A DNA stretch of 64,000 nt from Patescibacteria group bacterium (GTDB lineage: Bacteria > Patescibacteriota > Minisyncoccia > Phycocordibacterales > UBA9973). Of this stretch, positions 3,822-60,319 are shown piece by piece. How positions within the stretch are numbered: the first letter of the stretch is position 1; each line of letters opens with the position of its first letter. The position numbers and the translations under genes are program-made. The notes under the pieces are model-generated. The model ran no database searches. It was not told the DNA's origin and worked only from the letters and a program-made list of their open reading frames with translations. The stretch is taken from contig JBBTUS010000006.1 in NCBI GenBank assembly GCA_038063635.1, positions 13,500 through 77,499 of the forward strand, in the 5' to 3' direction.

Positions 3822-3995
3822 CCGGATGAATAAACAAAAAATTGTTTTTATAATACTTCGTTTGGTTATGGGTTTTATGTTTCTTTGGGCGTTTTTTGAT
3901 AAACTTTTTGGCTTGGGATTTGCGACAACCCCTAATCCTCTAACCCCTAACCCCCAATCCTCTAATCTCTAATTCGCGCGAATAGGCGAATAGAT
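3822..3995 (+). repeat. left copy of a direct repeat (about 170 bp, internally deleted) flanking the fic cassette; the right copy is 4966..5478
   Basis: Long identical nucleotide runs were seen by eye at both ends (the start of doxX, and the tail ending ...ttcgcgcgaataggcgaatag). Confidence 0.7.
3826..3972 (+). pseudogene. truncated duplicate of the doxX-like gene at 4970..5422 (5' 110 nt fused to the 3' tail region; 48 codons)
   Basis: Nucleotide stretch 3826-3940 is nearly identical to 4970-5084 (MNKQKIVFIILRLVMGFMFLWAFFDK versus MHKQKIVFIILRLVMGFMFLWAFFDK). It is joined to a tail resembling 5408-5478 (ccaatcctctaatctctaattcgcgcgaataggcgaatag). Confidence 0.6.
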
Positions 3996-4123
3996 AAAAT
4001 AAGAAAAATTAAGTAAAAAAATTCAACGACAGTACATATTTGATTTTAATATATAAATATGTTATAATATATAATGTGTAATACATATTTGATTGGTTTT
4101 GTTATACTTAATATAATAATAAA

Positions 4124-4967: not shown

Positions 4968-5478
4968 CCATGCACAAACAAAAAATAGTTTTTATAATAC
5001 TTCGTTTGGTTATGGGCTTTATGTTTCTTTGGGCATTTTTTGATAAAGTTTTTGGCTTAGGATTTGCGACAACTGCAGACAAAGCATGGATTAACGGGGT
5101 ATCGCCAACAGCTGGTTTTCTTTCTTTCGCGACAGAAGGTCCTTTCGTTAATATATTTCACGCCCTCGCCGGTGTTGCTGTTGTTGATTGGCTATTTATG
5201 CTCGGACTTTTGTTTGCAGGACTAACTCTTGTATTTAATAAATTTATAAAATGGGGATGTATTGCCGGATGTTTAATGCTATTTTTTATGTATTTGTCTT
5301 TGCTCTGGCCGGAAAATAATCCAATTATTGATGAACATATCGTTTATATTTTAGTACTTATACTAATCGCTTTTAATAATAAAAATAACATCGAACAAAA
5401 ACCCACCACCCTTAATCTTTAATCTTTAATCCCCAACCCCCAATCCTCTAATCTCTAATTCGCGCGAATAGGCGAATA
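4966..5478 (+). repeat. right (complete) copy of the direct repeat pair bracketing the fic cassette
   Basis: Its start (4971-5084) and tail (5408-5478) match 3822-3995. Confidence 0.7.
4970..5422 (+). CDS. DoxX-family small membrane protein (four TM helices)
   Basis: At 150 aa and hydrophobic, it has a DoxX-like topology. The N-terminus LRLVMGFMFLWAFFDK is typical of DoxX/DoxD-like proteins. Confidence 0.5.
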   Translation: MHKQKIVFIILRLVMGFMFLWAFFDKVFGLGFATTADKAWINGVSPTAGFLSFATEGPFVNIFHALAGVAVVDWLFMLGLLFAGLTLVFNKFIKWGCIAGCLMLFFMYLSLLWPENNPIIDEHIVYILVLILIAFNNKNNIEQKPTTLNL

Positions 5479-5508
5479 GTTATTATCTAAAGTTTAATAT
5501 AATAAAAA

Positions 5509-12989: not shown

Positions 12990-13076
12990 CGAATTAGTTA
13001 TCAGGTTCTAGGTTTTAGTTTCTAGTTAAAATAAAGAAAATAAAAACCATAGACTAAATATTTAATATTATTTATA

Positions 13077-13499
13077 ATGAAAACAATTATGAGTATAAAC
13101 AATTTCATGGAAAAAATCAAGCTTTTTTTAGAAAGTGAAAAGGGGAAAGATATTTTAGTTATAATGATAGTTGTATTGGTAGGCCTAGCATCATTTGAAT
13201 TAGGTAGATTATCTAAACAAGACTCAAGTAATGGCCTTAAAATTGAATATCAGGGCCAAGAGGCCAATGCAATGGGCTCTATTAGCTCAAATATGCCTAA
13301 ATTAGCCCAAAATACGGCTTTTCAGGGTAATACAGACAACTCAAATAAAGGAAGTTATTTTGCTTCTAAATTGGGTAAAAAATTTTATTCAATAACTTGT
13401 TCGGCAGGAAAAACCATTAAACAAGAAAATAGAATTTATTTTTCTTCCACGATTGAAGCAACTAATGCAGGATACGAACTTTCCAGCGCGTGCAGATAA
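13077..13499 (+). CDS. membrane-anchored protein with a C-terminal Ada-like metal-binding domain
   Basis: It has an N-terminal TM. The C-terminal FYSITCSAGKTIKQENRIYFSSTIEATNAGYELSSAC resembles the Ada Zn-binding pattern Y..C......EN...F.s..EA...GY.PC..C. Confidence 0.4.
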   Translation: MKTIMSINNFMEKIKLFLESEKGKDILVIMIVVLVGLASFELGRLSKQDSSNGLKIEYQGQEANAMGSISSNMPKLAQNTAFQGNTDNSNKGSYFASKLGKKFYSITCSAGKTIKQENRIYFSSTIEATNAGYELSSACR

Positions 13500-13594
13500 A
13501 TTGGTATAGGGAAGTGCTGTATTTAAAAGAAATACCGTGTCGCACAATATATCTTTTCCGACGCAGTATTTCTAATAACCCAATAAAATGAGCT

Positions 13595-13936
13595 TTAGGG
13601 CTTTGTACCTGTTAATGGCATTGTCGGCGCAGCTTCTTCAAAATTTGTGGGTTTTCCATCGCGAATTCTTTCCATATTTAAAATAAAAGATTTCCAAAAA
13701 ATTTCTATAAAAATATCATTCCAAAGATAAGCTACAGGTTTCTTTAAATAAGCTTGCCAAATAGTCATGCTAGTTTCTTTAACATAACTTATATTACCCT
13801 GCCCTTCCGGACTTTCTACAACAGACTTAATATCTACTTTAAAATAACTAAGAACTAAAATCAGAATGAATCCTAAAATTAAAATTCTTATTAAGCTCAT
13901 ACCGCGATTTTTTTCTTTTTTTGCGATATTTGTCAT
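13595..13936 (-). CDS. hypothetical membrane protein (113 aa)
   Basis: The ORF has an N-terminal TM. It is preceded by a possible 48-codon small hydrophobic ORF at 13944..14090 on the same strand. Confidence 0.4.
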   Translation of the reverse strand: MTNIAKKEKNRGMSLIRILILGFILILVLSYFKVDIKSVVESPEGQGNISYVKETSMTIWQAYLKKPVAYLWNDIFIEIFWKSFILNMERIRDGKPTNFEEAAPTMPLTGTKP

Positions 13937-14134
13937 AGTCTTTCAATTAATTAAAAAATATTTCTTATCGCAGATATAAACCAATCAATGAATCCTCTTA
14001 CAGTTATATGAAAATAGCTCATTAAAAAAACTGCGATTATAATAAAAATAATAAATGTTAGAAATCCACCTGTTTTATTTTTTTTAACCATATTTATATA
14101 ATACTACAATATATAACTATAAGACAACAGGTAC

Positions 14135-14182
14135 TTAGAGGCGAGGCAGGCCCGCCTTGACTTGCATTAGAGGCGAGGCAGG
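14135..14182. repeat. 16-bp direct repeat ttagaggcgaggcagg x2 (14135-14150 and 14167-14182), GC-rich; the second copy begins exactly at the stop codon of the M23 peptidase
   Basis: The repeat was seen directly in the sequence. Confidence 0.6.
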
Positions 14183-15450
14183 TAATACATCGGGTCTAAA
14201 TATGCATTTACCGGGGCTATAGGCATCGTATAAATACGTCCTCCACATGTCCTAGAAGGCCTAGATTCCATTTTTACGGCCCCTGATGCGTATAAAGACA
14301 CGTGTAAATGAGGGCCGGTTGAATATCCAGTATTCCCAGTATAACCAACAATTTCTCCTCTTGTCACTCTTTGTCCTTCATAAACTTTAATTAAAGATAA
14401 ATGCCCATAGGTGCTGGAAAGACCATTGTCATACTGTATAAATATAAATTTTCCAAAAGACGCGCCGAGACAAGTCAAATCCGTATTCCCTGTTCCTAAA
14501 ACTTTTCCATCAGCCATAGCTTTAAGCGGAGTACCAACTGAAGCTCTGAAATCAACGCCATTATGCGTACCGTTTGCATACAAGCGCTTGCCAGCTTCTG
14601 TTTTGCCAAAAAATTGGGTTATATAAATATAATCAAGCGGCCAACTTAGAACTCCAGCCCCCGGAAGCTTGGTTGGGTCAAGAATAAAACTTATTTTAGA
14701 TTCATAATCGCGAACTTCTTTTTCAAACGCTTCTTTCTTTGCCAGTCTATTCTTTAAAAGTTTTTGATAATTTATCTCGCTATTTTTAGTTTCCGCTAAT
14801 AATTTTTTCTTTTCGGTTGTATTTTGTTCTATAATTTTTTTCTGGTCGGCTAAATTTGTTTTCAATAATATTAATTCCTTTTTAGCATCAATAGTTTCTT
14901 TTCTGGTATCTTCCAATTCACTCTTTATTTCTTTTAATTCTATTATTTTATCCCGAATCTTTTCGCGAATAGTCGCCATATTGTCTATATCATTCCACGC
15001 AGTTGTAAAATCATTGTTAGATAATAGTATTTCCACTATGCTTTCATTTTCAAATTCATCGGTTTTTCTGATATAAAGTCCTAAGGAATTTATATTATTT
15101 GAAATAGAATTCTGTTCAGTGATTATTTGAGAATTTAATCCTTGAATTTTTAAATTTGTTTTATCTATTTTTTTTTGAGTTAATGCAATATCTACAGTCA
15201 ATTTTTTCTTATTTAAATCAAGTTCTTTAATAGAATTACTCAAGGATTTTTTTTGCTTTCCAACTAAATTTAACTCTGTTTGATATTGTTCAATTTCTTG
15301 TTCTAATGCGGTTATATCAATATTTTTTTGATTTATTTTACTATTTAATTCTTCTATCGTTTCGGCAAAAGAAAAAACAATGGGCATCAAAAGAGATAAT
15401 CCTATGATTATAAAACTAAATAGCCTTTTGTATTCGAGATAAGGTTTCAT
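14167..15450 (-). CDS. M23 family peptidoglycan metalloendopeptidase with a long N-terminal coiled coil (EnvC-like)
   Basis: A signal/TM is followed by about 230 aa of coiled coil. The C-terminal HNGVDF...GNTGYSTGPHLHVSLY is the M23 HxxxD/HxH motif. Confidence 0.8.
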   Translation of the reverse strand: MKPYLEYKRLFSFIIIGLSLLMPIVFSFAETIEELNSKINQKNIDITALEQEIEQYQTELNLVGKQKKSLSNSIKELDLNKKKLTVDIALTQKKIDKTNLKIQGLNSQIITEQNSISNNINSLGLYIRKTDEFENESIVEILLSNNDFTTAWNDIDNMATIREKIRDKIIELKEIKSELEDTRKETIDAKKELILLKTNLADQKKIIEQNTTEKKKLLAETKNSEINYQKLLKNRLAKKEAFEKEVRDYESKISFILDPTKLPGAGVLSWPLDYIYITQFFGKTEAGKRLYANGTHNGVDFRASVGTPLKAMADGKVLGTGNTDLTCLGASFGKFIFIQYDNGLSSTYGHLSLIKVYEGQRVTRGEIVGYTGNTGYSTGPHLHVSLYASGAVKMESRPSRTCGGRIYTMPIAPVNAYLDPMYYLPRL

Positions 15451-21693: not shown

Positions 21694-21722
21694 CTTAAAT
21701 TAAAAAGATTAAAAGATTTTAA

Positions 21723-21765
21723 GAGCCGTGGGTTCCCTGTCCTAGGACTCCGAGGGCGAAGGCTC
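21723..21765. repeat. GC-rich hairpin element, family 1 (copy A), intergenic between scpA and scpB
   Basis: gagccgtgggttccctgtcctaggactccgagggcgaaggctc. The terminal inverted repeat is gagcc/ggctc. It is near-identical to copies at 36931 and 59283. Confidence 0.75.
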
Positions 21766-21793
21766 AGAAATCTTTTAATTTTCTTAATTTATT

Positions 21794-32833: not shown

Positions 32834-33730
32834 ATGATGGTAGACTCAATTATTAGTGCAAAAAAAATAAACGAATCAGATGTCGTTATTCTGCTGGCCG
32901 GTTATGAAAAAACTGTTTCGTCAAAAAAGGGCGCATCAAAAGGTCCTAAAAAAGTTTTAGAAATGCTTGACTCAAAAATTGAGTTTTTTGACCGTACTTA
33001 TAAAACAATTCCTAGTAATAAAATTAAAATTGGAGAAAAAAATCTTGGTATTATGAAGTTTTTTTCTCCAGAAAAAGTTTATAAAAAAATAACATTGGAG
33101 TGCGAAAAATTACTTAAAAATAATAAATTTATATTCTTACTAGGAGGAGAACATTCCGTCTCATTAGGACATTTAAAGGCTTTAACAACAAAAATAAATC
33201 CGAAAGAAGTTACAATAGTGCAAATAGATGCTCATTGCGACTTACGTGATAACGATAGCGACTATAGTAAAAAACCATCAAAATTTGCGCATTCATGTGT
33301 GGCGCGTCGCGCTCATGAATTAGGATATAATCTTATTCAAATTGGTATTCGTACTTATTCCATTGATGAATATAATTATTTTTCTGATCCACAAAATAAT
33401 ATTACGGTTTTTGAATGGGGTGTTGGCAAAAAAATTCCAACCATAGAAGAAATAATTGGGTCTATTAAAACAAAATATGTTTATATTACTATAGATATAG
33501 ACGGATTTGACCCAAAATATATGCCTGGAACCGGCACTCCCGTACAGGGTGGCCTTGATTGGTGGTATGGAATAGAGCTTATAGAAAATATTATAGATAA
33601 AAAAGACATGATAGGAGCAGATATAGTAGAAGTATCCCCTGTTAAAGATTCAGTTCTAACTGAATACGGAGCTGCTCAACTTTGTTATACAATGATAGCT
33701 CATAAATTTAGGGATAAATTAATTTCTTAA
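32834..33730 (+). CDS. arginase/agmatinase-family ureohydrolase (agmatinase-like)
   Basis: GGEHSVS, QIDAHCDLRD and ITIDIDGFDP are the ureohydrolase Mn-binding motifs. Confidence 0.75.
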   Translation: MMVDSIISAKKINESDVVILLAGYEKTVSSKKGASKGPKKVLEMLDSKIEFFDRTYKTIPSNKIKIGEKNLGIMKFFSPEKVYKKITLECEKLLKNNKFIFLLGGEHSVSLGHLKALTTKINPKEVTIVQIDAHCDLRDNDSDYSKKPSKFAHSCVARRAHELGYNLIQIGIRTYSIDEYNYFSDPQNNITVFEWGVGKKIPTIEEIIGSIKTKYVYITIDIDGFDPKYMPGTGTPVQGGLDWWYGIELIENIIDKKDMIGADIVEVSPVKDSVLTEYGAAQLCYTMIAHKFRDKLIS

Positions 33731-34298
33731 AAATTTTTTTTCTATAAATACAAAATACTATAATCAAATTTATTATTATAAAATAGACGCCAAAAGAGTA
33801 TATTGAAAAAATCCAATTTTTTATAATTAACAAGCCTATAATATTATTTACTATTCCAGAAAGATATAAAATCCCTGTTTCTGTGTGCGGAAACTTCCAA
33901 GATTTTATGATGGTTGGAAAGGCTGCTAGACCATCGCTTAATATTGCAAAAAGAATTGAAACTCCCAAATTCTTAGTTAAAATATATATTGCGAGAGCAA
34001 TTAATGATAAAAAACCACAAAACATATCAAATTTTGTGATTTTCCAATAACCATTTTTCACAATTAAAGAAGCGACCAATACAATCAAGGGGCCAAAACC
34101 AGCAATAAATACCGGTAGCACAGAAAGTCCTGCTCCCGCTTTCAGCTGAAAAAATACGCCAATAAATGGCGCAAGCATCCAAATAAACCAAGAAACCAGA
34201 TTGGGTCTTGTTTCTCCAAAAAACATATTCTTAAAATAAAAATAATAACCTATTACGGTTGAAAGTATAATTAGATATCCAAATTGTTCAGGAAGCAT
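33708..34298 (-). CDS. hypothetical polytopic membrane protein (about 6 TM)
   Basis: Hydrophobicity pattern only. Confidence 0.4.
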   Translation of the reverse strand: MLPEQFGYLIILSTVIGYYFYFKNMFFGETRPNLVSWFIWMLAPFIGVFFQLKAGAGLSVLPVFIAGFGPLIVLVASLIVKNGYWKITKFDMFCGFLSLIALAIYILTKNLGVSILFAILSDGLAAFPTIIKSWKFPHTETGILYLSGIVNNIIGLLIIKNWIFSIYSFGVYFIIINLIIVFCIYRKKIFKKLIYP

Positions 34299-34325
34299 TC
34301 TAAAATTATATCATATTACTCCAGT

Positions 34326-35081
34326 AAACAAGGTTCAACCTTGTTAAAATCTTGTTAAAATTCTTTTCTGAAATTTAACCAGTCACTTATAAAATCCTTA
34401 AACTCTTTACGGTATTTAAAGTATTGTGGAAAATTTTCCATATCCAAAATAGATTTTTCTTTTCTATTAAAACCACAATGATCTAAAAAGCTTGAGAACT
34501 TATAATTAAACAAAAAAATTTTTACCCTTATTAAATTTTTAATTCCCTCTTCTTTCCAATTTTTCTCTATTAATTTTACTGGGTTTAATCCAATATAAGC
34601 GAACAAATACTTTAAATAATTATCCTTTTGAACATGACTGCCTTTAAATCTACCTTGAAAGAGGGTGCCATTTCTATTGTATTTCTTATTGAAATACATA
34701 GTATAAGCAGTCATTAATTTTTGCATAAACAAACTAATTCCACCTTCACTTTTTTCATTGATTAAAATATGAAAGTGATTAGGCATCAAACAATAAGCAC
34801 CAATTTCAACCAATGTTTCGTTTCTCTCTAAATTCAAAAGTTCTGACAAGGTCTGACCTTGTCTTAAATAGTCTCCTAAATCTACTTTCAAATTACTATT
34901 GCATAAATATAAAAGAATTAAAAATCTATAATAATCACTTGTTTCATTAAAAATAATTCTTTTATCGGTACCTCTGTTATAAATATGATAAAACTCGCCG
35001 ATAGAAAATTCTATATTTCTACTCATTAATATATTTTAGCAAAGAATACACAGAAGACAAGGTTCAACCTTGTCTTCTGTG
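34326..35081 (-). mobile_element. REP-associated tyrosine transposase (RAYT) / IS200-like unit: a HUH-Y1 transposase gene flanked by palindromes with the shared core acaaggttcaaccttgt
   Basis: The left hairpin is aacaaggttcaaccttgtt (34326-34344). The right is a perfect 33-bp palindrome cacagaagacaaggttcaaccttgtcttctgtg (35049-35081). Confidence 0.7.
34355..35026 (-). CDS. HUH Y1 transposase (IS200/IS605 TnpA-like / RAYT family)
   Basis: CLMPNHFHILI is the HuH motif. YIGLNPVKL matches the catalytic Tyr context YI..NPVK. Confidence 0.7.
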   Translation of the reverse strand: MSRNIEFSIGEFYHIYNRGTDKRIIFNETSDYYRFLILLYLCNSNLKVDLGDYLRQGQTLSELLNLERNETLVEIGAYCLMPNHFHILINEKSEGGISLFMQKLMTAYTMYFNKKYNRNGTLFQGRFKGSHVQKDNYLKYLFAYIGLNPVKLIEKNWKEEGIKNLIRVKIFLFNYKFSSFLDHCGFNRKEKSILDMENFPQYFKYRKEFKDFISDWLNFRKEF

Positions 35082-35103
35082 TTGTTTGTATTAAAAATGA
35101 AAC

Positions 35104-35700
35104 CTAAGAAGCAAGAGGTGATCTAGATTCTAGTATTACTCTTAAGCTTTGAATTTTATCAAGTGCCTCTTTCAGCATATTAACACCTTGTTCATGTAAA
35201 GTATTTTTCTCTTGTTCAGAATAATCTTTATATTTTGTGTCTGCCAATTTAGCTTCGGGGTCTATAAGATAATTTCCTTGTTTCTCTTTAAACAACGGGT
35301 CTTCGGCTTTAATTATTAAATCATAAATTTTTTCGAGCTTTTCATCAAATACCTTAATGGGTTCATACGAATATATTTCATCTTTATTTTTTGGATAAAA
35401 ATACCCGCCGTAACTCTCTTGAGCACACTTAAGATATAATTGGGCAAGTTCGTCAAAAGAATTTTCAAGGTCAAGTGCTAATGATTGATCTACATTATAA
35501 TTTTTATTATAAGGAGGTAAATATTGATCAATACGTCCTGAAACGTGTTTAATTCGAGCTAAAATTGCTTCATGAAGTTTATCATAATGTTTCTCCCTGA
35601 CTTTTGGTCCCCATATGCCAGGTGCTGCATTGGGGAAGGATTTGTATTTAATACTTTTTCTTTCCTCAACTGTTGGTTTAATATCCATTGATTTATTCAT
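35104..35700 (-). CDS. hypothetical protein (198 aa)
   Basis: The ORF is long. I recognise no family. Confidence 0.4.
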   Translation of the reverse strand: MNKSMDIKPTVEERKSIKYKSFPNAAPGIWGPKVREKHYDKLHEAILARIKHVSGRIDQYLPPYNKNYNVDQSLALDLENSFDELAQLYLKCAQESYGGYFYPKNKDEIYSYEPIKVFDEKLEKIYDLIIKAEDPLFKEKQGNYLIDPEAKLADTKYKDYSEQEKNTLHEQGVNMLKEALDKIQSLRVILESRSPLAS

Positions 35701-36873: not shown

Positions 36874-36930
36874 AATGTTTAAAGAAGCATTATATCATAT
36901 ATTATGTAAACATTTCAATAAAAATTTAAA

Positions 36931-36972
36931 GCGTCGTGGGTTCCTTGTCCTATATCTCCGAGGGCGAAGGCG
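36931..36972. repeat. GC-rich hairpin element, family 1 (copy B), between ATPase-1 and dnaJ
   Basis: gcgtcgtgggttccttgtcctatatctccgagggcgaaggcgc. The terminal arms gcgtc/ggcgc give a G-U wobble if transcribed. Confidence 0.75.
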
Positions 36973-36997
36973 CTAAAATTTCTATTGGAATGTTTAT

Positions 36998-38565: not shown

Positions 38566-38593
38566 CTGTTTCTGTTTCCCCTAAGTCCGACTT
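38566..38593. repeat. perfect 12-bp-stem palindrome tttcccctaagtc-cg-acttaggggaaa, sharing the core ccgacttagg with a palindrome inside pepA (23318-23342)
   Basis: Seen directly in the sequence. It is intergenic between Cys-rich paralog 1 and ATPase-1, and no T-tract follows. Confidence 0.6.
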
Positions 38594-38603
38594 AGGGGAA
38601 ACT

Positions 38604-59014: not shown

Positions 59015-60319
59015 TTATTTTATAACTCCCCCTCCTAAAACAACATTTTTATCATATATAACGCAAGACTGTCCTTTATCAACTAAAACAGGCTTATTAA
59101 AGCTGACTTTCGCGCTTTTTTTATTTATTATCTTAATTTTACATGGCAAAAATTCACCATGATAACGAATTTGCGCTTGGTAATTCTTGCCGTTTTTTGG
59201 AATTTCAGACCTGTTCCTGAATTGGCGGGCAGGAATCCAATTTGTATTCTTTATTTCTAAATGGAAACCTGAAAAATTTAAAGCGTCGCGGGTTCCCTGT
59301 TCTATGTCTCCGAGGACGAAGACGCTGGAATTTTTTAGATTTTCATTTTTAAAATTTTTATCTTGAGAAACTATTAAAATATTTTTCTTAATATTTTTAT
59401 CTATTATGTAATATGGGCCGTCATTCGGACTTTTTTGGGTAATCGTAAAACCATGCCGTTCTCCCAAGGTATAAAAAACCACTCCATTGTGATAACCTAT
59501 TTCTTCCCTTTTTTCATTAAGCGTTTTCCCTTTTTTTTCTTTTATATAATGTCTTAAAAATTCCTTTAAATCTACCGCGCCTAAAAAACATATTCCTTGA
59601 CTGTCTTTTTTTTCTGCAACCGGCAAATTGAATTTTTTTGCCAGTTTGCGAACTTCTGTTTTTTTGAGATGGCCTATTGGAAACAAAATTTTCTTCAATT
59701 GTTCTTGCTTTAATGTCCAAAGAAAATAACTTTGATCTTTGGATGGATCTAGTCCAACTTTTAGCTCATAGCTTTTAGCTTTTAGCTTGTGATTTCCTCT
59801 ATCAGCTATCAGCCATAAGCTATCAGCTATTCTGGCATAGTGTCCCGTTGCCACAAAATCAGCTCCCATTGAAATCGCTTCTTTAAAAAATGCGCCAAAT
59901 TTTACTTCCTTATTGCACATCACATCAGGGTTTGGCGTCCTGCCGGCTCTATATTCAGAAATCATATAATCTGCAACCTCTTTTTTATACACATCTTCAA
60001 AATCAAAAGTTAAAAATGGAATATCTAAAAAGGCGGCAACACGCATTGCGTCATGACGCTCTTCTTCTTCATTGCACTCTAAAAAATCCGGATGCCAAGT
60101 TTTAATAAAAACTCCAACAACTTCATATCCACTAAACCCCTTCGGGGTCGGGCGACCAAAAAATTTTAAAAAATTTTTTGGTGTAGCCTGTTTTAAAAGT
60201 GCTGCCGAAACAGCGCTATCTACTCCTCCCGAAAGTCCTACAAAAACTGTTTTTTTATTACTTTTCATAGAATTAAAATGTCTTTTAAAAAGCATTGCGC
60301 AGGCTGACGAGCCGAGCAT
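59015..60319 (-). CDS. mnmA: tRNA-specific 2-thiouridylase MnmA (carries an in-frame repeat insertion in the C-terminal region)
   Basis: The PP-loop is VFVGLSGGVDSAV, plus DPSKDQSYFL and catalytic cysteines. The family-1 element is translated as SVFVLGDIEQGTRDA. Confidence 0.85.
   Translation of the reverse strand: MLGSSACAMLFKRHFNSMKSNKKTVFVGLSGGVDSAVSAALLKQATPKNFLKFFGRPTPKGFSGYEVVGVFIKTWHPDFLECNEEEERHDAMRVAAFLDIPFLTFDFEDVYKKEVADYMISEYRAGRTPNPDVMCNKEVKFGAFFKEAISMGADFVATGHYARIADSLWLIADRGNHKLKAKSYELKVGLDPSKDQSYFLWTLKQEQLKKILFPIGHLKKTEVRKLAKKFNLPVAEKKDSQGICFLGAVDLKEFLRHYIKEKKGKTLNEKREEIGYHNGVVFYTLGERHGFTITQKSPNDGPYYIIDKNIKKNILIVSQDKNFKNENLKNSSVFVLGDIEQGTRDALNFSGFHLEIKNTNWIPARQFRNRSEIPKNGKNYQAQIRYHGEFLPCKIKIINKKSAKVSFNKPVLVDKGQSCVIYDKNVVLGGGVIK
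59283..59325. repeat. GC-rich hairpin element, family 1 (copy C), in-frame inside mnmA
   Basis: gcgtcgcgggttccctgttctatgtctccgaggacgaagacgc. The arms are gcgtc/gacgc, and the flanks aatttaaa..aat are shared with copy B. Confidence 0.75.

Follow-up and report, generated by a model that had tools for sequence, protein, structure and literature searches.

A probable resident RAYT-type gene of Patescibacteria and its cognate hairpins, one of them inside the reading frame

Described relatives and the class of the protein

REP-associated tyrosine transposases (RAYTs; REP, repetitive extragenic palindrome) are the textbook example of a domesticated transposase, with a host function that is still unknown, and the recognition and cleavage of hairpins on single-stranded DNA (ssDNA) are established biochemistry for TnpA-REP and for IS608 TnpA. 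Here, a gene of this kind was analysed in a stretch of 64,000 nucleotides (the window) of contig JBBTUS010000006.1, assigned to a Patescibacteria group bacterium; Patescibacteria have tiny genomes and few mobile elements. The gene, hereafter the Y1 gene, encodes a putative HUH nuclease and is accompanied by three copies of one short palindrome, which lie upstream of it, downstream of it and in frame within it (Table 1). On balance, the locus is probably a resident single-copy RAYT-type gene with cognate low-copy REP-like hairpins, and not an autonomous IS200 insertion sequence (IS), a reading that we hold with moderate confidence.

In the classification of these enzymes, class 2 (TnpA-REP) is marked by the tyrosine motif Y-x3-N-P and subclass 1.1 by Y-x3-Q (PMC6006769). 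Subclass 2.1 has the motifs NH[YF]H, FQ, Y[IV]HLNP and, in the proximal tail, SS, together with a median length of ~238 amino acids (aa) and a low intragenomic copy number (Quentin et al. 2018, PMC6006769, Table 1); it corresponds to the group 1 RAYTs of Bertels and to most TIRYTs of Di Nocera 2013. Both Quentin et al. (PMC6006769) and Bertels described this subclass as being without REP association, and terminal inverted repeats (TIRs) of the form GGGG[AT][CG]A[CG] in some members, as well as tails resembling the helix-turn-helix (HTH) of DnaA_C, were noted for it (PMC6006769). In subclass 2.4, from Cyanobacteria and Bacteroidetes, REPs occur in frame within tnpA-REP as variable insertions between the HUH motif and the catalytic tyrosine, leaving the frame undisrupted (PMC6006769).

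The window protein resembles subclass 2.1 in its motifs NHFH, LFQG and YIGLNP (YIHLNP in the family consensus), in S178-S179 and in its length of 223 aa. We regard it as a putative RAYT-type protein of class 2, subclass 2.1-like, an assignment made by these motifs and not by the authors' hidden Markov models. It departs from the subclass as described in that flanking hairpins are the rule here. Three matches to the TIR motif were found in the window, all >18 kb from the gene and at chance level, and TIRYT-type TIRs were ruled out because none lies near the gene. Unlike E. coli TnpA-REP (RAYT, yafM; PDB 4ER8; Ton-Hoang 2012, Messing 2012, PMC3479197), the protein has 223 aa with a conserved tail of 70 aa. 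Its hairpins also differ from E. coli REPs, being perfect palindromes with a conserved top AAGG..CCTT and without a GTAG foot; E. coli REPs number hundreds per genome, whereas the hairpins here are few and one of them lies in frame inside the gene.

The initial annotation, made from the letters of the window, had called the product an HUH/Y1 transposase, and this call was borne out. Residues 62-145 matched Pfam PF01797 Y1_Tnp above threshold (E = 1e-9, 39 bits against a cut-off of 23 bits), and H84, H86, Y144, N148, P149, S178 and S179 were invariant in 70 homologous sequences. The HUH motif CLMPNHFHILI (H84-F85-H86, 34769-34777) and the catalytic-tyrosine motif YIGLNPVK (Y144, 34595-34597) lie in a core of about residues 12-152, which is followed by a helical C-terminal tail of ~70 aa (~153-223) that carries the invariant SS motif. 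This tail had no Pfam match and was not covered by the top structural match; profiles Bac_DnaA_C, HTH_23 and HTH_28 were tried on it, and no Bac_DnaA_C or HTH match in Pfam was obtained. A sequence-only search of PDB was nearly uninformative (E ~0.8 to ISDra2 TnpA), and a fold search was therefore needed. An AlphaFold (AF2) model was built from the homologue alignment (predicted local distance difference test [pLDDT] 86.7, predicted template modelling score [pTM] 0.86), in which Y144 sits on the helix formed by residues 135-152. Its top match was 4er8, E. coli TnpA-REP bound to a REP hairpin, which ranked ahead of IS608 and ISDra2 TnpA at only ~15% sequence identity to the window protein. The modelled fold is thus that of an intact HUH/tyrosine ssDNA nuclease-ligase, with E. 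coli TnpA-REP as its nearest structure.

The protein search, run with E up to 1e-3, returned 5,635 protein clusters. The 120 best listed homologues were 195-301 aa long, mostly 220-245 aa, and the named sources among them were all Patescibacteria or Parcubacteria, with the annotation "transposase" or "RayT". The Patescibacteria clade with subclass 2.1 motifs, comprising these 5,635 protein clusters, extends over at least 585 species genomes.

Hairpins at the window locus and across the family

An exact 17-mer, ACAAGGTTCAACCTTGT, is shared by the upstream and the downstream hairpin (Table 1), so that the initial annotation was right to describe the open reading frame (ORF) as bracketed by hairpins with a common core. 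The palindrome that it gave as a perfect 33-bp one, the right-hand hairpin upstream of the gene, is in fact a perfect palindrome of 35 nt; it is the longest and strongest perfect hairpin in the 64 kb and folds as ssDNA at -18.2 kcal/mol (z = -7.5). In the window, the outer hairpins share one orientation, with 21 of 23 nt agreeing in direct register. The internal hairpin, which the initial annotation did not mention, has the same stem as the flanking ones and a different loop; on the gene strand it reads AGA CAA GGT CAG ACC TTG TCA, i.e., R55 Q56 G57 Q58 T59 L60 S61. When the 17-mer core was searched for throughout the 64 kb with up to 3 mismatches, six strand-matches at three sites were obtained against 0.16 expected, a result reached in 0 of 100 shuffles. 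All three sites belong to the Y1 gene, and the other 63 kb held no further copy. The palindrome is therefore private to the gene and not a dispersed repeat family here, which ruled out a dispersed REP family in the window; the earlier statement that at least three palindromic repeat systems coexist in it needs to be qualified accordingly, since this core occurs nowhere else. Remnants of truncated gene copies were ruled out as the origin of the flanking hairpins because their likeness to the internal site ends at the edge of the palindrome.

Table 1. Positions of the features of the locus within the window
Feature	Position	Strand	Size or structure	Remarks
Y1/HUH gene	34355-35026	minus	223 aa	HUH core and helical C-terminal tail
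Upstream hairpin (5' of gene)	35048-35082		Perfect 17+1+17 = 35-nt palindrome ACACAGAAGACAAGGTT-C-AACCTTGTCTTCTGTGT	Shared core 35057-35073
Internal in-frame hairpin GACAAGGTCTGACCTTGTC	34845-34863		9-bp stem	Within the ORF
Downstream hairpin AACAAGGTTCAACCTTGTT	34327-34345		9-bp stem	9 nt past stop codon; shared core 34328-34344
Promoter-like site, Y1 gene	35033-35060	minus	-35 TTGTCT in 3' arm of upstream hairpin, 16-nt spacer, TG-extended -10 TAAAAT	Consensus match only
Promoter-like site, membrane-protein gene	34310-34338	minus	-35 TTGAAC in loop and 3' arm of downstream hairpin, -10 TATGAT	Consensus match only
Membrane-protein gene, next after Y1 gene	33708-34298		196 aa	
ORF198, between dnaJ and Y1 cassette	35104-35700	minus	198 aa	

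The second-strongest perfect hairpin in the window, GTTTCCCCTAAGTCCGACTTAGGGGAAAC (38574-38602), has a 14-bp stem and lies 2 nt past the stop codon of a minus-strand gene. Apart from one missing base pair, this hairpin looks like those of the family (cf. AGTAAGGTCCGACCTTACT in L019), and it had no match in the other fetched loci; it may be a diverged solo copy or a plain terminator.

For comparison, 80 further loci were fetched from 80 different assemblies and analysed by script; counts rest on 82 non-redundant loci with a delimitable gene, and individual loci are cited below by L numbers. In 67 of 80 loci, a 15-mer was common to the upstream and downstream regions at ≥ 14 of 15 nt, against 5-7 of 80 in a control in which each locus was paired with a random other locus. 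At the same stringency the coding region shared a 15-mer with a flank in 44 of 82 loci and with both flanks in 36. In the ortholog L005, which is 82% identical and lies in the same dnaJ ... membrane-protein context, all three hairpins were present with the core CAAGGT-N3-ACCTTG unchanged; its upstream hairpin is a perfect 45-nt palindrome whose outer stem differs in sequence from that of the window. L006 (73%, adjoining rplT) likewise has all three hairpins, and L008 (74%, adjoining ruvA) has the upstream and internal ones, the downstream hairpin being missing. Throughout the family, the palindromes are of one type, with a constant top AAGG-N3-5-CCTT, of which A-G-G ... C-C-T is near-constant only, and a variable lower stem. 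The sequence varies by genome (e.g., CGCGAAGGGCGGGCCTTCGCG, GGGAAGGACAGTCCTTCCC, ATCAAGGGGAGTCCTTGAT, TACAGAGGTTTAACCTCTGTA) and agrees within a locus. Family medians place the end of the upstream hairpin 27 nt before the ATG and the start of the downstream hairpin at, or overlapping, the stop codon (distance 0).

The loops agree as closely as the stems. They were equal up to orientation between the upstream and downstream hairpins in 55 of 57 cases (20 in the same orientation, 33 flipped, 2 self-complementary) and between the upstream and internal hairpins in 34 of 35; because the stems are perfect palindromes, only the loop reports the orientation. Within syntenic clades, a loop variant was common to all three copies (TCA in L023 and L040; TCG or its complement CGA in L027 and L038), and homogenisation therefore happens in place. 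Loop flipping can arise spontaneously in hairpins, and by analogy it is reminiscent of the flip/flop of hairpins resolved by HUH enzymes. Judged from these alignments, the hairpins are cognate to the gene across the family. Concerted change of all three copies, the coding one included, was seen even where synteny is kept; it speaks for a homogenising process that is active, or for dual selection on DNA and protein that is strong enough to change amino acids. This family-wide concerted evolution also goes beyond the initial annotation. The 14 nt next to each stem, on both sides, were compared for 66 upstream and 64 downstream hairpins, and no conserved guide or cleavage motif was found.

Across 81 loci, a TAtaaT box occupies positions -12 to -7 from the ATG, T-T-G is enriched at -35 to -33, and no Shine-Dalgarno sequence was seen for the Y1 gene; in the window, the -10 box TAAAAT ends 6 nt before the ATG. 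These sequence patterns suggest leaderless or near-leaderless Y1 transcripts with the -35 box within the hairpin. An alternative reading takes the hairpins for ordinary expression signals that are unrelated to the activity of the protein, the upstream one acting as terminator of the preceding gene and also as -35 box or operator, the downstream one as terminator of the Y1 gene and as the -35 box of the next gene, and the internal one as mRNA structure. Such a role would fit the upstream hairpin, which is terminator-like on both strands, the overlap of both outer hairpins with promoter-like -35 boxes, the conserved spacing of hairpin core, -10 box and ATG in the family, and the A-tract and T-tract arms in some relatives (L006), as in bidirectional terminators. 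However, terminators and promoters need no identity to each other, to an ORF sequence or in the loop; the core is absent elsewhere in 64 kb full of other genes; and the T-run is lacking in many copies. Moreover, the palindrome type is specific to the gene family and co-varies with the locus, and solo copies are found too, even between tRNA genes. We consider it quite unlikely that expression signals alone explain the hairpins.

Near the gene, a perfect DnaA box, TTATCCACA, was also observed within 150 nt in 12 related loci (L013, L017, L018, L019, L021, L034, L039, L047, L061, L075, L082, L088). In these loci it is ~20-fold enriched, with 15 matches in 24 kb near the gene against 17 in ~500 kb of flanks, and all 15 are in the orientation of the gene strand, usually at about -51 to -63 or +28 to +49. 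The box is absent beside the copy in the window.

The in-frame copy

The internal copy occupies one fixed place: in 25 of 36 cases its centre lies 74 nt before the HUH Asn codon. In the AF2 model the corresponding residues lie in a surface loop that connects helix A with strand 2 (pLDDT ~80), and the copy encodes a semi-conserved peptide [QEK]-G-x-[TS]-[LF] in which G57 is nearly invariant. Under the codon usage of the window, the probability that synonymous codon choice yields the internal stem is 5.5e-4. Covariation was examined in a codon-anchored alignment of the internal site from 40 loci with a 9-pair stem. The stem was 81% paired against 63% in shuffles, double (compensatory) changes occurred in seven of the nine pairs, and the covariation score was 0.41 against 0.13, a value that 0 of 500 shuffles reached (slid partners, 0.06-0.13). 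The compensatory changes alter amino acids; for example, L066 has ..LQGSTLL.. with the stem TACAAGG, whereas the syntenic L044, L029 and L072 have ..LQG(S/R)TLE.. with the stem TCCAAGG. DNA pairing is therefore kept at the expense of the peptide. Chance or a codon artefact was ruled out as the source of the internal palindrome by the codon-choice probability, the recurrence across the family and the covariation. An origin as a recent insertion was ruled out as well, since the distance from start codon to HUH motif, and the gene length, are alike with or without the internal copy.

Genes whose hairpins are of the type CTAGG..CCTAG provided a further prediction, because a copy of that type would put TAG in the internal frame and no internal copy should therefore occur in them. 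This held for L060, L071, L083 and L085 and for 11 metagenome loci flanked by CCCTAGGAAAGACCTAGGG, all of which were without an internal copy; in the latter 11, the peptide at the internal place is FRNVIDVTKDV.

Subclass 2.4 is the only described precedent that was found for a cognate palindrome inside a RAYT frame. In contrast to those insertions, the copy here is non-insertional, lies at a fixed codon position upstream of the HUH motif and co-evolves nucleotide for nucleotide with the flanking copies. Literature searches found nothing on a fixed, in-frame, covarying palindrome in such Patescibacteria genes. What appears to be new is thus a fixed, non-insertional, covarying coding copy, in a subclass reported to be REP-less and in Patescibacteria. 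To our knowledge, no DNA partner was known before for subclass 2.1 (group 1), the largest group of RAYTs. The palindrome would be a clear, compact and tractable one, short, perfect and present at three defined places, with the covariation mapping constant (AAGG..CCTT) against free bases.

As a tentative proposal, more doubtful than the reading of the locus as a whole, the in-frame hairpin might be a protected master copy of the recognition site or, in a variant of the idea, a site of programmed self-cleavage or self-binding by which the enzyme is throttled. As a master copy, the coding hairpin would be kept intact by purifying selection on the enzyme gene, and the HUH enzyme would re-template the flanking and solo copies from it or convert them against it. 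If so, the specificity of the enzyme and its substrate would be inherited as one self-referential unit, and the [QEK]-G-x-[TS]-[LF] peptide would be shaped by pairing at the DNA level and not by protein function.

Residency, gain and loss of the cassette, and neighbouring features

The exact protein of the window was found on seven contigs, always in identical context, and the 80 best genome loci are spread over 80 assemblies, one in each; no second copy of the gene lies within the 64 kb. Flank synteny was kept in 7 of 7 pairs at ≥ 80% identity of the Y1 protein, in 12 of 34 at 70-80% and in 13 of 82 at 60-70%. In these draft assemblies, the Y1 gene looks single-copy per genome and vertically inherited. 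The near-universal presence of such an HUH nuclease, in single copy and with private hairpins, suggests that it serves a maintained role in the cell. Annotation pipelines label such genes "transposase", and counting them as IS overstates the mobilome.

An autonomous IS200/IS605-type element would offer a different account of the locus, with the outer hairpins as subterminal end hairpins and a unit of ~760 bp that moves by single-strand peel-and-paste. Subclass 1.1 TnpA proteins (IS200, IS608, ISDra2) share with the window protein the catalytic fold and the Y1_Tnp domain, and they act on a short unit by recognising a folded hairpin at each of its ends; the hairpin-bounded unit here is compact and of IS200-like size, its outer hairpins in the window are in like orientation, and the gene occupies the dnaJ slot in some genomes, is missing from it in others and lies in other contexts in L006 and L008. 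However, the tyrosine motif is Y-x3-NP and not Y-x3-Q, the protein has 223 aa with a conserved tail and not ~150 aa, and its modelled structure is nearer to TnpA-REP than to IS608 or ISDra2 TnpA. Multicopy behaviour is also lacking, as there are no near-identical copies at differing sites among the 80 assemblies and every pair at ≥ 80% identity keeps its synteny. The relative orientation of the end hairpins, as read from the loops, appears to vary (33 flipped vs 20 same), and the gene has neither a tnpB nor a conserved cleavage tetranucleotide. The family is essentially absent from viral contigs, with one 27%-identical relative in 2.9 M, which counts against a mobile IS and ruled out phage carriage. 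Direct repeats were considered as target-site duplications and rejected as a general feature: among the 80 loci, a single direct repeat other than the hairpins flanks a cassette, namely a diverged ~65-nt duplicate of the 3' end of ruvA, stop codon included, upstream of the cassette in L008 (L008:5885-5948 and L008:6682-6749), where the real ruvA end abuts the cassette downstream. An autonomous element is thus improbable. The initial annotation had offered two architectures, IS200/IS605 ends or a RAYT with its cognate REPs; the RAYT with cognate palindromes fits, through Y-x3-NP and the TnpA-REP fold, whereas the IS200/IS605 half was not supported, given the missing Y-x3-Q, the missing multicopy signal and an orientation that does not appear to be fixed.

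The gain and loss of the cassette was followed through relatives of the adjacent 196-aa membrane protein, a comparison that the initial annotation had proposed and that did reveal an empty site. In L091, the membrane-protein gene follows dnaJ after 3 nt, a clean empty site where it is without its own promoter. The gap in L092 and L093 is 40 nt and contains a single hairpin, CCCCTAGGAAAGACCTAGGGG, of the general type of the family, and in L089 a PG_binding gene occupies the slot. The Y1 cassette alone fills the slot in L005, and the cassette plus the 198-aa ORF in the window. ORF198 is without a Pfam family and has no family-type hairpin upstream of it; since it is missing from L005 and from the empty-site relatives, the gap between dnaJ and the membrane-protein gene is a variable slot in which different genes were gained per lineage.

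A metagenome scan with the L092-type hairpin CCCTAGGAAAGACCTAGGG gave 39 stretches. In 11 of them, two copies ~695 nt apart exactly bracket a Y1 gene, in two a Y1 gene lies ~700 nt away, and the remaining 26 are solos, one of which (L095:400-500) lies between two tRNA genes. In 475 kb of relatives' flanks, 18 extra hairpin matches were found at ~14 distinct sites in 13 loci, most within ~1.2 kb of the gene. The palindromes therefore exist away from the gene too, as REPs do, but sparsely. Several of the CCCTAGGAAAGACCTAGGG solos apparently lie within long ORFs (178-671 aa), on contigs L097, L101/L114/L128 and L105.

These solos bear on the possibility that the hairpin-bounded cassette moves by hairpin-to-hairpin strand exchange, like an integron attC cassette but with its own HUH enzyme, so that excision leaves one solo and integration into a solo recreates, and homogenises, two flanks. 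A family-type solo lies exactly in the dnaJ/membrane-protein slot of L092 and L093, where the window and L005 have the cassette, and the slot itself varies between empty, other gene and cassette. The match of the flanking copies in 67 of 80 loci would follow as well, and solos outnumber gene-flanking pairs for one hairpin type. On the other hand, the L092 solo is of another hairpin subtype than that of the window and is therefore not a direct footprint of the window cassette. Synteny is stable in close relatives, the internal copy is left unexplained, and in L008 the downstream hairpin is missing and the 65-nt ruvA duplication is found instead. Overall, movement of this kind is unlikely.

For the resident RAYT-type gene with cognate hairpins, a mechanism can be proposed by analogy with TnpA-REP and IS608 TnpA. 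The enzyme would bind the folded hairpin on ssDNA, cut it and rejoin there, and this activity would copy or convert hairpins, so that the three copies and the few solos stay homogeneous. Occasionally, it might move or delete the hairpin-bounded cassette and leave a solo hairpin behind. Proposed copying or conversion by the enzyme would account for the identical copies within a genome, loop included, for the solos and for the gain and loss of the cassette. The upstream hairpin would supply the -35 box of a leaderless promoter, and its occupancy or extrusion could feed back on expression; the internal copy would make the gene itself a substrate or binding site and may be self-limiting or a copy protected by coding constraint.

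Several points weigh against this account, and some of them also limit the claim of the initial annotation that the palindromes are cognate REPs, of which the flanking cognate palindromes remain and REPs in the usual sense do not. The match to the NCBIfam RAYT equivalog NF047646 was 44.7 bits, below its cut-off of 80 bits, and the GT[AG]G/CGTC foot is absent beside the stems, including those of the window. Classical REP/REPIN amplification is not seen, given zero extra copies in 63 kb of the window and the ~14 sites in the relatives' flanks. Subclass 2.1 is REP-less in the literature, in contrast to the hairpins here. Perfect palindromes that overlap a -35 box or follow a stop codon can partly be explained as transcription signals, and the concerted evolution could in principle reflect selection alone and not copying by the enzyme.

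No RNA family was found in Rfam at the Y1 locus. Elsewhere in the window, a 62-nt GC-rich element, AAAAATTTAAAGCGTCGTGGGTTCC...GAGGGCGAAGGCGCTAAAATTT, occurs in three copies that are 81-100% identical (21712-21773, 36920-36981 and 59272-59333) in an otherwise AT-rich genome. One copy lies just upstream of dnaJ, and the element, which had no Rfam match, is probably one of the GC-rich repeat families mentioned in the initial annotation. Repeated segments of 84 nt (3938-4021, 5424-5507) and 104 nt (3826-3929 / 4970-5073) contain CCCCTAACCCC-like runs and the palindrome TTCGCGCGAA. Between 38600 and 50350 lie several diverged direct repeats, 83-236 nt long and 62-81% identical, at spacings of 1845-1881 and 6915-7352 nt; they indicate a family of paralogous minus-strand genes, either tandem or dispersed. 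Finally, the cumulative GC skew peaks at ~13-14 kb (13000-15000), being positive before and negative after; the genes beyond the peak are mostly on the minus strand, and the peak may be a replication-related or gene-orientation switch.

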